From positions 17,777 through 81,776 of the IMG/VR virus record IMGVR_UViG_3300033072_000232: a stretch of DNA of 64,000 bases. One strand, given 5' to 3'. Origin of the DNA: a virus (lineage: Duplodnaviria; Caudoviricetes). The notes under the pieces were generated by a model. It did no database searches. It worked only from the letters and a program-made list of their open reading frames with translations, and was not told the DNA's origin. A program made the position numbers and the translations under genes. Shown here piece after piece: positions 3,154 to 60,649 of this stretch (within the stretch, counting starts at the first letter, position 1; every line of letters begins with the position of its first letter).

Positions 3154-4182
3154 ATGCCTATTACACGTTCATATACTAATGCTTTCGACGTTGTTGATTA
3201 TACAGCCGAATTAGCCCTCGTGCCCACTAAGTGGTCGCTACTAAACGATGCCGGTGTTTTCAGTGAAGAATCCGTAGCTACCAATACTGTCACCTTTGAG
3301 GAAATTTCTCAGACAGCCACTCTGATTGGCGACCAATTCCGTGGTGCAAAACCTCAAGCAAATAGTGACGACTCTCGTAAGATTCATGCTTACAATATCG
3401 CTCACTTCCCTGTTGTTGATTATATCACCCCTGCCGACATTCAAGGCAAACGGGCATATGGCTCTACAGATGCTGCTGAGACGGAGGCGGCGGTGCTTGC
3501 CCGGAAGATGGCTCGTATTTCACGCGCAATGGATGATACTCTAGAACTTGCACGTTTCCGCACACTAGCTACTCTTACAGCCTATACCCCTAACGGTACT
3601 ATTACTGCTTCTAACTTTGCTACCGATTTTGGTGTAACCCAAAAGACTGTTGACTTTGTACTAAGTACAGCAGGTACTGACATTATCGGCAAGACGGAAG
3701 AGGTCGTGGCCCACATTCAAGATAACGCACAAGGTACTAACGTAACTGGTGTTATTGGTTATGCTTCTCCTGAATATTTTGCAAAGCTAATTGCTCATGC
3801 TAAAGTAACTCAGGCGTATCAGTACTACCAAGCAGTCGCTGGTCAGGAGATTCTACGAAATCGTGCTGGTAACGACATGAGCATGTATCGTACTTTCACT
3901 TACGGTGGTGTGAAGTTCATTGAAGTTCGTGGTTCCATTGGTGGTGTTCGTCTAGTCCCAGCTAACGATTGTATCTTTGTCCCTCAAGGTGCAGACGATA
4001 TGTTCGTAACGTACTTCGGCAATGGTAACAAGATGGATTTGGTTAACACATTAGGTGAGAAACGCTACCTGTGGGTTTATCGCAGTCCTAAAGGTGAATC
4101 AATTGACATTGAAGCTGAGTCTAACTTCATCAACATTGTTCGCCGTCCAGCACTGGTTGTGCGCGGTCTGACTTCTAACTAA
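3154..4182 (+). CDS. major capsid protein (lambda gpE-like family)
   Basis: 342 aa, size, motifs and position; followed by a strong terminator. Confidence 0.85.
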   Translation: MPITRSYTNAFDVVDYTAELALVPTKWSLLNDAGVFSEESVATNTVTFEEISQTATLIGDQFRGAKPQANSDDSRKIHAYNIAHFPVVDYITPADIQGKRAYGSTDAAETEAAVLARKMARISRAMDDTLELARFRTLATLTAYTPNGTITASNFATDFGVTQKTVDFVLSTAGTDIIGKTEEVVAHIQDNAQGTNVTGVIGYASPEYFAKLIAHAKVTQAYQYYQAVAGQEILRNRAGNDMSMYRTFTYGGVKFIEVRGSIGGVRLVPANDCIFVPQGADDMFVTYFGNGNKMDLVNTLGEKRYLWVYRSPKGESIDIEAESNFINIVRRPALVVRGLTSN

Positions 4183-4200
4183 TACTTAGATTGTAGCTCA

Positions 4201-4226
4201 AAGGGATTCTTCGGAGTCCCTTTTAT
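4201..4226 (+). terminator. rho-independent terminator after capsid gene
   Basis: AAGGGATTC-TTCG-GAGTCCCTT followed by T run. Confidence 0.85.
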
Positions 4227-55831: not shown

Positions 55832-56188
55832 ATGCGTAAACGCTTTGAAATCTTTAGTCAAGCATTTGACCGCAAAGGGATGTTGCTTAGTAGTAGCCTA
55901 AACAGCTACTCAAAATCGCATCCTATGCAACTCTATTTTAGTAAACAAGCAGGAATGTCAGAGCAACGTGTATACTTGCATTCTGAACTTGCTTGCTTGA
56001 TTAAAGCAACAGGTAGGCTTGGTAAAGATTCTCGGAGTGTTCATACATTGCTTGTACAGAGGTTCAATAGCAAAGGTTGTCCTGTGCTTTGCAAGCCTTG
56101 TGATAGCTGTATGTTGGCTATACAAGCATACGGTGTGAAGATTTTGAAGTATACTGATAACGGTAAATTGGTTACTGTTGAACTTTAA
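55832..56188 (+). CDS. cytidine deaminase-fold protein
   Basis: HSE...PCDSC zinc motif. Confidence 0.7.
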   Translation: MRKRFEIFSQAFDRKGMLLSSSLNSYSKSHPMQLYFSKQAGMSEQRVYLHSELACLIKATGRLGKDSRSVHTLLVQRFNSKGCPVLCKPCDSCMLAIQAYGVKILKYTDNGKLVTVEL

Positions 56189-56198
56189 GGAGTAAATT

Positions 56199-57513
56199 AT
56201 GGGTGATGATGACGGTAAAGGTATTGGTGTGATTGCAGTTATATTTCTTGTACTTCTTATACTTATAGTCGCAGTCTCCATTGGCGCAAGTATTGAAAAC
56301 TTCCGATTGTACAAAAGTTGTATGGTAGAAATGCAGGATAAACCTCACAAAGAAGCTATTAGTATCTGCAAAGAAAGAACCAAGGGGTAACGCATGAAAG
56401 TATATATTGTAATTCGTAATGAGTTTTGTATACATGAATATGATAATTACTTTAATGAAGCAGTTTACCTCGATGAAAATAAAGCACAAGAATTTTGTGA
56501 CTTTAGTAATAAGAACATGGGCAATGGTAGTAAATACTCAGGTATTAGTTTTTATGTTGAAGTATATGAAACAAAGGAGTAAGTATATGCATATAGAATA
56601 CGCTGAAGATAAAGAACTGATTGAACTTGCTGCTAAGGCTGCTGGACTCCCTGAGCGTGGATGGATGGGGCCAGCGTTTATGTATGTGAAAGATAATCAG
56701 TTTACTGATTGGAACCCATTGAAAGACGATGGTGATGCATTTCGACTTGCTGTGAAGTTGAGTCTTACAATTATTCAAGACAAAAATGATAAGCTGTGTG
56801 CTGTTCATTGGACTGATGTGCAAGGTTGTAGGTCAGCTTACAAAGAAGATCCCTGCGCAGCTACACGCAAAGCAATTACTCGTGCAGCAGCGGAAATCGG
56901 AAGGAATATGAAATGAACATGGAAGATTTGTACCTAAGCACAAATTCAGCAATCAAACCAAAGTCAATCTTTGTATTATTCCGCAGAGAAGATTGGCTGA
57001 CTGACGAATGGATTGATTACCCTGTTCTTGCTTGTTTTGATTTCGATGAAGTAAAACGTCAGCAAGCAATTAAACTTGCTTATTCCGAAGCAAATAAAAC
57101 TAACTACTACATTGAAGAAGTAGAATACAAGTAATGAAAGCAAACGATACAATCGAGCGTCTAACCAGAGGTATTATCGGTATGATAAATACCAGAGCTA
57201 ATGTAATTGCTTTCACAGAAACTATTAAACGTCATAAACTTAAATACAATAAGCAGTCTGCTTTATACAACCAAGCTGTCTATGTAGTTACTTTGGATAG
57301 GCTAATGGATACATACGAAAAGGAATCTTCTAAATGAAAATCTCAGAATTAATTAAAGAACTTCAAGATCAATTAGATGAATTTGGAGATTCCGATACGT
57401 ATTGTACGGATACATATGGTTTTATTTCTCCTATTACATTAGTTTACTATAGTGTTATCAGAGAAGATGAACAAGGAAATCCTTTGCAATTAGGTGTTGT
57501 GGTTGAAGGTTAA
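56199..57513 (+). CDS. cluster of six small hypothetical proteins
   Basis: 56199-56390, 56394-56582, 56587-56916, 56913-57134, 57134-57337, unlisted 57334-57513. Confidence 0.5.
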
Positions 57514-57514
57514 T

Positions 57515-57931
57515 ATGAAACAAAAGCATATCAAAGCATACATGGAGTGCGCTGAAGCATTTGCAAAGTGCAGCAATGCTACTAGACTAAAAGTAGGCTC
57601 TGTTATTGTCAAAGATAACAGGATTATTTCTTGCGGTTATAATGCACATGCAGAACACATCAATGCGCCCTGCGAGCTTCCAGACGGTACAACTGACCCT
57701 AGACTAAGGCACAGTGAAAAAAACGCTCTTATGGGCCTTGTACGTAGCAATCAAAATGCTGTAGGCGCTGTGTTGTTTTGTAATTATTCGTGTTGTCTTG
57801 CCTGTGCTATTGACATAGTTGATGCTGGAATTAAAGAATTTATTTATAAAAACGATTACAGGGATTCATCTGGAATTCAATATTTAATTAAAAACAACAT
57901 AGAGGTTAGAAAATGGCAAGACCAAGACTAA
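57515..57931 (+). CDS. dCMP deaminase
   Basis: KVGSVIV..GYN, HSEKNA, SCCLAC motifs; start ATG 57515. Confidence 0.85.
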   Translation: MKQKHIKAYMECAEAFAKCSNATRLKVGSVIVKDNRIISCGYNAHAEHINAPCELPDGTTDPRLRHSEKNALMGLVRSNQNAVGAVLFCNYSCCLACAIDIVDAGIKEFIYKNDYRDSSGIQYLIKNNIEVRKWQDQD

Positions 57932-58626
57932 ACGATATTATCGGAAATAAGTACAATTATTTACTAGTAACAGGCAGGAGTACCTCCAACAATAGAAAGT
58001 TCGTTTGTGTTTGTGACTGTGGTAAAATTACAGAAACAACAAAACAACGACTTATTTCTGGAAGAACAAAGTCTTGTGGTTGTAAAAAATCTTTACTTTG
58101 CTCAGAAGCTAACAAGTTACATGGTGCATATATTGACGGTAAAAATAGCCCAACATATCAAAGTTACATAGCGATGTTACATAGATGCCATAACCCAGAG
58201 AGGGCGCATTATGATTCATATGGTGGTGCGGGTATTGCAGTAGAAGAGAGCAGTTGGTTACAGCCATCCCCTTATGGATACCTATCTTTTCTGGAAGATA
58301 TGGGAGAACGACCTCAAGGTACTTCAATTGATAGAATAAATGGAAAGTCGGGGTATTCTAAAGAAAATTGTCGTTGGGCATCTCGTAGATTGCAATCGGT
58401 AAACACAGACCATAAGAAAACTAGTAAAAACACATCAAAATATAGAGGCGTATCCGTTAGACCTAGTAATGGAAAGTATATGGCAAGAATCGGTAATGGT
58501 ATAGGTGGTTATGAGTATCTGGGGAATTATTTTACAGAATTTGAAGCAGCGTTTGCTTATAATACTAGAGCATTTGAGTTACACGGGGATGATGCAAAAT
58601 TAAATTTAATATTTTGTGCGCTATAG
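57913..58626 (+). mobile_element. HNH/AP2 homing endonuclease
   Basis: CVCDCG, KSCGC, DMGERP..SIDRING..YSKENCRWA, YRGV..AP2. Confidence 0.85.
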
Positions 58627-58733
58627 ATATTGTTGATGCAGGTATTTCTGCTGTATACTACAGACATCAATACAGATGTGATTCAGGTGTTAAATACCTG
58701 ATGGAACGTGGTATACTTGTTAAACAAATTTAA
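58617..58733 (+). pseudogene. orphaned original C-terminus of dCMP deaminase
   Basis: CAIDIVDAGISAVYYRHQYRCDSGVKYLMERGILVKQI* duplicates the end of 57515-57931. Confidence 0.85.
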
Positions 58734-58741
58734 GGAATAAT

Positions 58742-59146
58742 ATGAAACCTACTTTATATCTTATCCGTGGTGTTCCCGGTAGTGGTAAGTCTACATTTGC
58801 ACAAGAACTTGAAGATGCTTGTGTTGTAAGCTATGTCCTTGAAGCTGACAATTACTTTATTAATCAGAGCACAGGTGAGTATAATTTTGATGCATCTAAG
58901 CTTAAACAAGCTCATGAATGGTGCCAGCTTTCTGCTATCCGATCACTTAACAATCAAAACTCAGTAGCTGTATCTAACACCAGTACAACAGAAAAAGAAG
59001 TAGAGACATATCGTAAAATCGCTGAAGAATGTAACGCTAATTTTGTTAGTTTGATTGTAGAGAACAGACATAGTGGTGTTAATATCCATAACGTACCTGA
59101 AGATAAGATTCAGCAGATGAAGCAACGGTTTAGCATCAAACTTTAA
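58742..59146 (+). CDS. P-loop kinase (polynucleotide kinase-like AAA_33)
   Basis: RGVPGSGKST, EAD.YF, AH.WC, VSNT motifs. Confidence 0.8.
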   Translation: MKPTLYLIRGVPGSGKSTFAQELEDACVVSYVLEADNYFINQSTGEYNFDASKLKQAHEWCQLSAIRSLNNQNSVAVSNTSTTEKEVETYRKIAEECNANFVSLIVENRHSGVNIHNVPEDKIQQMKQRFSIKL

Positions 59147-59294
59147 GGAATAATATGACAACGATTCTATTTTCCATAGCAATGACACAATTATGGATTG
59201 CCACTAATCCTGATACCACAAATTCTTTTAGAACCGTGGCAGCATTAACGTGGTTGATCACTTCTATAGTACTTTCAATAATCTTACTTCTAAA

Positions 59295-59375
59295 ATGACT
59301 ACATACCTAACCAGCGATCTTCACCACGCTCACAATAAATTAACTATGAATATAATCAATGGTAAAGATAACTAG
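59295..59375 (+). pseudogene. orphaned original N-terminus of metallophosphoesterase
   Basis: MTTYLTSDLHHAHNK then diverges and stops; coupled by ATGA overlap to upstream 47-aa ORF (59155-59298). Confidence 0.8.
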
Positions 59376-60066
59376 AAAATTTGAATACGAATGTCAAAAC
59401 TGCGGAAAGCCTTTTCTTGCTTTCCCTTCTCAACGTAGAGGTAAGACTTTTGCATGTTCAAAAGAATGCGCAGCGGAAATAAGAAAAATCTCTAATCTTG
59501 GAGAAAAGAATCCTAATTATAAAGAAGGAATCCATTGCACTGAATCTTTCTGTGATTGTGGAAATATTAAGGATTACAGGGCTGTTAAGTGTTCAGATTG
59601 TACAAACTTACATAAGCCGAAAGAAGGTTACTCACGCGATCTTGCTGGTGTTATAAAAGCAATATCAGACTCCGATTCATATTTAAGTGCTTCTAAATTA
59701 TGTGGAGTAAGTAGGGTCAAAGTTAGGGATATTGCAAAAGATAACGGAATTGATATTTCTCATTTTGTAGTTTGCAAAAATAGACCTTCAACAGATTTAG
59801 ATATATTTAAAATCCATGATACAAGAGTGAATGCAAAAGTTAGGAAATATTTACTCAATAATGATATTATGGAGTATCAGTGTACAGAATGTGGCCTTGG
59901 TGATGAGTGGAATGGAAAACTCCTCACTCTAGAACTTGATCACATCAATGGAATTAAAGAAGACAATAGATTAGAGAATCTTAGATTCTTGTGTCCAAAT
60001 TGTCATACTCAAACATCAACTCATAGAGGAGCTAATATAAATGCAAGAAATAGAGAAAGGAGTTAG
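59359..60066 (+). mobile_element. zinc-finger HNH homing endonuclease
   Basis: CQNC..CSKEC; LELDHINGIKEDNRLENLRFLCPNCH. Confidence 0.85.
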
Positions 60067-60070
60067 TCGG

Positions 60071-60649
60071 ATGTTTTTTACATCCGACCTTTAGCTCCAC
60101 CATTCACACAATAAAATCTGTGAATATACAGAACGTAATCGCTATACAACACCAGAACAACATACTGAATGGTTGGTTGATCTTTGGAATAAGCAAGTAA
60201 AGAAAGGTGATGTTGCTTACATACTTGGAGACCTTAGCTTCTCGCATAAATATGAAGAAGTAGCAGCGTTTCTACGAAGGCTTAACGGTCAGAAATTTGT
60301 ATTGAAGGGGAATCATGATCGTAGGGAGATTCTTGATAGCTTAAAACTATCTGGTATTATTCAGAACTGGTGGGATTACAAAGAAATCAAGCTAGGTACT
60401 GATAAGACTACTACGTGCTTATTTCACTTCCCAATTGCATCTCACCATAGAAAAAGTTATGGGAGTTTCATGTTACATGGGCATGTTCATGGTACAATTC
60501 AATATCCAGGAAAATTACTCGATGTTGGACTAGACAACTCCTATAAAATCTTTGGTGAACACAAGCTATTCTCTGAACAAGATGTGCTAGAATACATGAA
60601 AACGAGGCAGGTGGCTGTGTTGGATCATCATAGTAAACGAGAGGAATAA
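60071..60649 (+). CDS. calcineurin-like metallophosphoesterase with in-frame TAG at codon 8
   Basis: AAGGAG SD, MFFTSDL*LHHSHNKI, then GDLSF, GNHD, HFP, HGHVH motifs in the same frame. Confidence 0.75.

Follow-up and report, generated by a model that had tools for sequence, protein, structure and literature searches.

An AP2-type homing-endonuclease-like gene linked to a foreign dCMP deaminase gene end in a bacteriophage genome

Introduction

Homing endonuclease genes that reside in coding sequence are usually made harmless by an intron or an intein, or by reassembly of the split protein. The intron-less homing genes of phage T4 (SegB, SegF, SegG and MobE) lie beside or inside conserved genes with neither intron nor intein, show presence/absence polymorphism and cause co-conversion of flanking markers, all of which resembles the locus described below; unlike it, they occupy intergenic positions, are flanked by homology to the left and the right, and do not leave behind a second copy of any gene end (PMC2988022). 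Insertion into a functionally critical coding region of a phage enzyme is known for mobE in nrdA of Aeh1 and for mobA with T4 genes 39/60, but there the result is two polypeptides that reassemble, or translational bypass rescues the gene, whereas here a spare end keeps the gene whole (PMC2988022). One-sided homing with illegitimate repair at microhomology was described by Parker, Belisle and Belfort in 1999, as summarized in PMC2988022. According to that summary, homology was likewise available on one side only and the other junction formed at a few shared bases, but the T4 td intron system was engineered, whereas the junctions here are natural.

The closest known parallel is the mORF gene hybrids of fungal mitochondria, present in atp6 of Allomyces macrogynus and in atp6, atp9, cox2 and nad3 of Glomus sp. 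(PMC3630166); the Allomyces work, as cited there, dates to 1994. In those hybrids, as here, the incoming endonuclease ORF is accompanied by a foreign C-terminal part of the host gene, which continues the reading frame of the resident 5' part; the native C-terminus persists downstream as a duplicate and is closer to relatives than the inserted copy is; and the insert may have no stop codon of its own (PMC3630166).

In this work we analyse a locus within a 64,000-nucleotide stretch (the window) of an 81.8-kb viral contig, the arrangement of which is the phage counterpart of the mORF hybrids. It differs from them in being located in a bacteriophage genome and targeting a dCMP deaminase gene (cd). 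Further, the protein is AP2-type and HNH-like, neither a LAGLIDADG nor a GIY-YIG enzyme; its start codon falls inside the replacement tail; a whole gene can also be part of the unit; and two apparently independent recent insertions of one cassette are visible. The protein itself is reminiscent of the IPA-HNH genes of ICP1-like phages, which encode an N-terminal HNH-like domain too divergent for Pfam HNH_3 and a C-terminal AP2 domain (PMC10448857); judged by this description, its architecture fits the class. Replacement-tail architecture was absent from that paper by text search, and a literature search of incomplete coverage returned no report of a phage case of an endonuclease-borne replacement gene end.

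Results

All features of the locus lie on the plus strand (Table 1). The first is a hybrid cd gene composed of a 5' part and a cassette-borne 3' end. Its product is intact, with both the HSE (H-x-E) and CxxC zinc motifs, scores 55.7 bits against the deaminase model (cut-off 25) and shares 74-86% of its amino acids with the products of 134-aa phage cd genes. The C-terminus of the product ('tail A') consists of 28 residues that follow a CAIDIVDAGI motif and of a four-residue extension: a Lys-Trp end, with Trp at the family's final residue, takes the place of the usual stop, and four more codons read into the next ORF. The latter encodes the endonuclease-like protein, and its ATG is placed within the Lys-Trp codons (AAATGG), so that the two ORFs overlap by 19 nt. 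Its candidate Shine-Dalgarno-like site is encoded within tail A codons, 7 nt 5' of the ATG, and its TAG stop codon sits inside sequence derived from a second deaminase gene end, the orphan ('tail B'). The orphan begins 2 nt before the second zinc-ligand Cys codon, contains a second CAIDIVDAGI followed by a different 28-residue deaminase C-terminus, and keeps an intact frame up to a native TAA stop (58731-58733), its length and stop position being those of the 134-aa family. An AAA_33 kinase-like gene begins 8 nt after its end. The same structure is found in an ENA scaffold and in two Logan contigs from other runs, which rules out an assembly artefact.

Table 1. Features of the cd locus in the window
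Feature	Coordinates	Strand	Basis
Hybrid dCMP deaminase gene (cd), 138 aa	57515..57931	+	ORF list; Pfam PF00383, E 4.9e-15
Recently transferred block: co-converted left flank, upstream motif, tail A, endonuclease gene	57737..58620	+	Comparison with L097
Upstream, cassette-type CAIDIVDAGI copy	57803..57832	+	Identical in window and L097; 29/30 in endonuclease-free L095
Replacement tail (tail A)	57833..57931	+	No blastn match to L095 tail; 23/28 aa shared with P0125/L190
GAGG, candidate Shine-Dalgarno-like site for endonuclease gene	57902..57905	+	Sequence reading
Homing-endonuclease-like gene, 237 aa	57913..58626	+	PHROG 374; AP2 profile and fold; AlphaFold2
Right junction hexamer TGTGCG	58615..58620	+	Follows cassette in both window and L097
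Orphan resident cd 3' end (tail B)	58615..58733	+	97.5% nt over 119 nt to L188 tail; 27/28 aa to P0173
Downstream CAIDIVDAGI copy	58617..58646	+	Sequence reading

A reading of the letters without database searches (the sequence-only reading) had pointed out that CAIDIVDAGI occurs twice with six silent changes and that a displaced tail without a start follows the endonuclease gene. Both observations stand. The two motif copies share 24 of 30 nt, and all six differences are silent and at third codon positions; the orphan (58617-58733) ends in its native stop, and the sole start codon on offer is a TTG at 58614 that is without a Shine-Dalgarno sequence. Translation from this TTG was considered and dropped, given that a ribosome-binding site is lacking and the product would be limited to the last 39 residues. 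The proposal that the silent changes represent a designed 'recoding' was dropped as well. The 24/30 identity (about 80%) is ordinary for cd alleles of these phages, which diverge to 77-85% nucleotide identity, so that the six differences need no special explanation; nor does the arrangement call for the third claim of the sequence-only reading, namely that they might destroy the cleavage site of the element. The upstream motif copy is the donor's natural allele, not a recoded one, and the insertion has in any case severed the downstream copy from its left flank. Another short gene that resembles a deaminase gene (118 aa; PF00383 match limited to E 0.005) is located at 55832-56188 of the window; it adjoins cd directly in the relatives L006, L007 and L009, whereas the window has about 1.3 kb of small ORFs separating the two.

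To establish which of the two tails is resident, we considered alleles without the endonuclease gene. The majority of the large family of phage cd proteins are 134 residues long, and their ends coincide exactly with that of the orphan tail. When such alleles are aligned, as the sequence-only reading had suggested, those of L095 and L096 match the window over 57333-57832 (85%) and resume at 58617 up to 58733 (77%), with nothing in them matching 57833-58616 by blastn. Likewise, endonuclease-free L188 (protein P0173) has nearly the same tail as the orphan (Table 1). Tail A, by contrast, finds its counterpart in the native tail of P0125/L190 (83% nucleotide identity), which ends in a normal stop. 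From these comparisons it follows that the orphan is the resident end and that the in-frame tail is foreign. The site is polymorphic: the endonuclease gene is missing from L095, L096, L188 and L189, and occupies one and the same codon in the window and L097-L099. The set of features that marks mORF-type gene hybrids is found here, namely, a foreign C-terminus in frame, an endonuclease ORF, and a native C-terminus closer to relatives. Gene-free relatives with the KEFIY tail, which the sequence-only reading had counted against its own account, exist in one lineage, L190/P0125. Of the gene-free alleles, those with the tails nearest to the two orphans, L188, L189 and L095, all have tails of the orphan type. 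L190/P0125 differs by 17% of its nucleotides and is best read as the lineage that supplied the cassette tail. The 5' part of the window cd is only 78% identical to that of L188, even though the L188 tail matches the orphan, and thus either the resident gene was already mosaic, or the conversion tract is long and not delimitable.

The tandem arrangement of two homologous tails (51% identity over 37 aa, E 1e-8, in a tblastn search with the orphan against the in-frame tail), the 30-nt imperfect direct repeat and the tail-A-like end of endonuclease-free L190 could also be taken to mean that the cd 3' end was duplicated in place, in tandem, on either side of an inserted endonuclease gene, and that its downstream copy then diverged and decayed. 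We consider this very improbable. The tails differ in 19 of 28 residues and yet both match the family consensus, two different endonuclease-free genomes contain near-identical native counterparts, one for each tail, the orphan retains the family frame, length and stop, and L097 carries the same cassette beside a different orphan.

The arrangement of the window was found in L097-L099 (a 79.6-kb ENA scaffold and the two Logan contigs), and comparison with L097 delimits a block that has moved recently. Over the cd 5' part (57515-57736), 46 of 222 nt are mismatched (79% identity). The following 884 nt (57737-58620) contain only four differences (99.5% identity), with zero mismatches in 57737-58083 and all four in 58084-58620. 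From 58621 onwards, mismatches in the orphan are again dense (77% identity), and the flanks differ overall by 21-23%. The block includes tail A. Since the block is nearly identical and the flanks and orphans differ, a single 884-nt block has entered two backbones recently, and each backbone has kept its own displaced tail. The orphan of L097 matches endonuclease-free L189 (protein P0144), and this homology extends beyond the stop to the genes that follow. Of the four differences, two are one-base deletions, by which the endonuclease ORF of L097 is broken into pieces of 85 and 142 aa. Some 3 kb upstream of its cd cassette, L097 also has a GIY-YIG gene (positions 1-541); several kinds of endonuclease genes occur in these genomes.

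The same comparison bears on what was brought in. Given that the endonuclease ORF extends into tail B and takes its stop codon from there, one could suppose that the incoming unit was the endonuclease gene with tail B, a passenger from a former host, and that tail A is native. This, too, has very little to recommend it: the block shared with L097 spans tail A and the endonuclease gene and ends 4 nt into tail B, and each orphan matches the local lineage, that of L097 being continuous with downstream DNA homologous to L189.

At the right junction, the hexamer TGTGCG occupies different positions in the two resident alleles. In the L097/L189-type allele it is in register and corresponds to the Cys-Ala codon pair; in the window/L188-type allele it is found 2 nt upstream and spans the last two bases of the Met codon, the Cys codon and one more base. 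Because of this 2-nt shift, the orphans are fused to the endonuclease ORF in different registers: the ORF of the window ends at the TAG in the orphan, and that of L097, if unbroken, reads in frame through the whole orphan. The hexamer is probably microhomology used in repair, and the two right junctions, which are such as annealing at a few shared bases would yield, suggest independent repair events. A probable footprint of loss is seen in L095. To the left of the motif this allele is cassette-like, with 3 mismatches in 57737-57828, compared to 71-76% identity of naive alleles over 57727-57832. Despite this left flank, L095 has an orphan-type tail, and the switch falls within an 11-nt run, GTTGATGCTGG, common to both motif copies of L097. 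Such a pattern would be expected from deletion of the cassette via the 30-nt repeats, or from conversion without gain of the gene.

Phage endonuclease genes are often found within group I introns, and another interrupted gene lies 1.5 kb downstream, which might suggest that a group I intron, or some other element eliminated from the RNA or skipped in translation, makes up the insert and that tail B is the expressed end. This explanation is the least credible of those considered. A search with Rfam gave no intron of any kind over 57000-60500 at E-values up to 1, the insert opens with a complete, in-frame, family-typical tail and a stop codon, and the overlap of the cd and endonuclease ORFs leaves no space for a ribozyme core. 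The interrupted downstream gene codes for a calcineurin-like phosphoesterase and contains a second, canonical HNH gene (59359-60066; PF01844, E 1.2e-6): an N-terminal piece with the metal-binding Asp-x-His is encoded 5' of the HNH gene (ORF 59250-59375), and the main ORF (60173-60649, PF00149) is without that N-terminus.

We then examined metagenome homologues of the endonuclease at 55-68% amino acid identity, nine loci of which were available with DNA (L097, L100, L101, L103, L104, L183, L184, L191 and L192). A deaminase gene immediately precedes the endonuclease gene in 9/9 loci, and in eight of them the endonuclease start (ATG or GTG) lies within the Lys-Trp end of the deaminase gene; in L104 it follows a divergent deaminase. 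The linked deaminase is of the window type in L097, L100 and L101, and of a distant type (~35% aa identity) in L103, L183, L184, L191 and L192. Seven of the nine loci have a deaminase tail or its remnant 3' of the endonuclease gene: orphan tails are present in L097, L101, L104, L183 and L184, L100 has a frameshifted one, and what remains in L192 is short and fused; no orphan was seen in L103 and L191. In five of the seven, the start of the orphan is no more than one codon away from the second zinc-ligand Cys codon. The orphans represent at least three different deaminase types, are unlike the linked tail in type, and usually supply the stop codon of the endonuclease ORF. The arrangement thus recurs across the endonuclease clade. 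In L101, a 5' fragment of a distant deaminase (PF00383 positions 3-76) is followed by a complete cd and endonuclease module and then by the tail of the same deaminase, an order from which it appears that a whole cd gene was brought in. Pairwise DNA homology among the clade loci is limited to the cd and endonuclease block, although faster divergence of the flanking small ORFs could partly explain this. Lys-Trp tails are associated with Asn-Tyr left of the motif (8/10 versus 15/109; Fisher p 2e-5, for sequences that are not phylogenetically independent), the difference from Thr-His being located 8-9 codons upstream of the motif. Either this difference or the six silent ones might protect the cassette allele.

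Several further observations concern the same sites. The orphan tail of L183 (3204-3326) itself ends with Lys-Trp and an extension, the signature of a former overlap with an endonuclease start, which suggests serial invasions at one site. In L007, a relative without the cassette, a different endonuclease gene (3406-4218, 270 aa; PF13392 HNH_3, E 2e-12) starts at the cd stop codon, and thus members of more than one endonuclease family seem to land at the cd 3' end. L101 also contains a 607-aa PhoH-family gene (1-1272) with a weak LAGLIDADG_3 match, which may hold an intein or an endonuclease insertion. Megablast of the region against 50,697 phage records gave no match, sensitive blastn retrieved only distant Acinetobacter phage cd genes, none of them followed by an endonuclease gene, and back-translated patterns of both tails had no match in IMG/VR. 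Homologues of the endonuclease in cultured phages do not exceed 40% identity, so that no isolate with the cassette is at hand.

The 237-aa protein comprises an N-terminal Cys-rich small barrel, an atypical HNH-like core and a C-terminal AP2 DNA-binding domain. The assignment of the last 60 residues to AP2 is based on a profile match to PDB 7wq5 (E 1.2e-20), on fold similarity (Z 7.8, rmsd 2.0 over 62 residues) and on PF00847 matches in 28 of 40 homologues; it was the sole match in a Foldseek search against PDB. In the AlphaFold2 model (mean pLDDT 86.8), residues 138-163 form a strand-strand-helix. The core conserves Asp140-Arg141, Asn152 and Asn164, of which Asn152 and Asn164 are at the other two HNH motif positions, and the position of the canonical catalytic His (D-H / H-N-H motif) is taken by the invariant Arg141 in 40/40 homologues. 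A strong match is that to PHROG 374 'HNH endonuclease' (E 3.3e-54). Pfam HNH models did not match the protein, hhalign against the canonical HNH_3 endonuclease of L007 found nothing, and a wide VIA-align search gave no convincing nuclease match, the sole nuclease fold match being the HNH enzyme PacI at only Z 3.9. Judging by the profile matches and the predicted model, nuclease activity is probable. Over residues 138-164, the whole clade has Asp-Arg where HNH_3 has Asp-His, as well as an invariant Tyr148; many phage proteins annotated as 'HNH endonuclease' apparently share both.

The change of the canonical His to Arg in all homologues and the lack of a Pfam HNH match, together with the highly mosaic nature of the genomes of these phages and the fact that an AP2 domain alone could serve regulation, may be seen as signs of ordinary phage mosaicism, in which general or illegitimate recombination would move the block, and the endonuclease-like gene would be no driver but an inactive passenger, or else would encode a regulator that binds DNA. 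We regard such a scenario as unlikely, albeit less so than the other alternatives. It does not account for an insertion point that recurs at the second zinc-ligand Cys codon in at least three deaminase types, nor for one sharp boundary combined with a short co-conversion tract. In addition, the frameshifted L097 copies fit the usual decay of homing genes after fixation, and the PHROG families matched (E 3e-54) are annotated as HNH endonucleases.

Discussion

Taken together, these results are best explained by a mobile cassette, to which we assign a probability of about 0.85. It would consist of a foreign dCMP deaminase 3' end fused to an AP2-type homing-endonuclease-like gene, the start codon of which lies within the deaminase end, and it would home by repair. 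The structure of the locus, the origins of the two tails (foreign for A, resident for B), the recent move of one block between backbones and the recurrence in the clade are themselves observed, and two claims of the sequence-only reading are strongly supported. One is that an intron-less endonuclease element resides in a conserved motif, which proves to be in the zinc-ligand part of cd, the most conserved one; the other is that the host gene is repaired by the element's own divergent end. The support for both comes from the gene-free alleles, from recurrence in the clade and from the presence in L097-L099 of the same cassette next to their own orphan.

The activity of the endonuclease, the position of cleavage, the repair pathway and the immunity of the cassette allele are what we infer from sequence. 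In the proposed mechanism, the endonuclease would break a cassette-free cd within, or a little 5' of, the codons for the second zinc-ligand Cys (the CxxC / CAIDIV region). A co-infecting genome that bears the cassette would serve as the repair template, engaged on the left side through homology of the cd 5' part, which would produce the short co-conversion tract. Repair would copy the donor tail and then the endonuclease gene, whereupon the new strand would be joined on the right side to the broken resident gene at a few identical bases (TGTGCG). The outcome would be a complete hybrid cd, an endonuclease gene, and the resident 3' end as an untranslated orphan. Where divergence of the resident deaminase prevents homologous pairing, the cd and endonuclease module would be inserted as a whole and the resident gene split.

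It is tempting to extend this scenario to the entire clade, and we consider the extension slightly more probable than its opposite. The clade would represent an obligate 'self-repairing' element, which always travels joined to its target gene, be it the end or the entire gene, and invades the zinc-site codons of phage dCMP deaminases without intron or intein. Between close relatives it would replace the end of the gene and between distant ones all of it, and the orphan would be the right homology arm in the next round.

The phage clade shows a third way of occupying coding sequence, so far described for fungal mitochondria, in which the element carries a spare copy of the displaced gene part; if the obligate self-repairing reading is true, this would be a third general way in phages to make an insertion harmless. 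The cassette is compact (0.9 kb) and recurrent, and it accounts for two features of phage genomes, mosaic ends of genes and short orphan fragments, the latter being missed by gene callers or annotated as small hypothetical ORFs. Orphans are dated, directional records of single homing events, including natural microhomology junctions. A selfish gene can in this manner drive the replacement of a metabolic gene, in part or as a whole, between distantly related phages.
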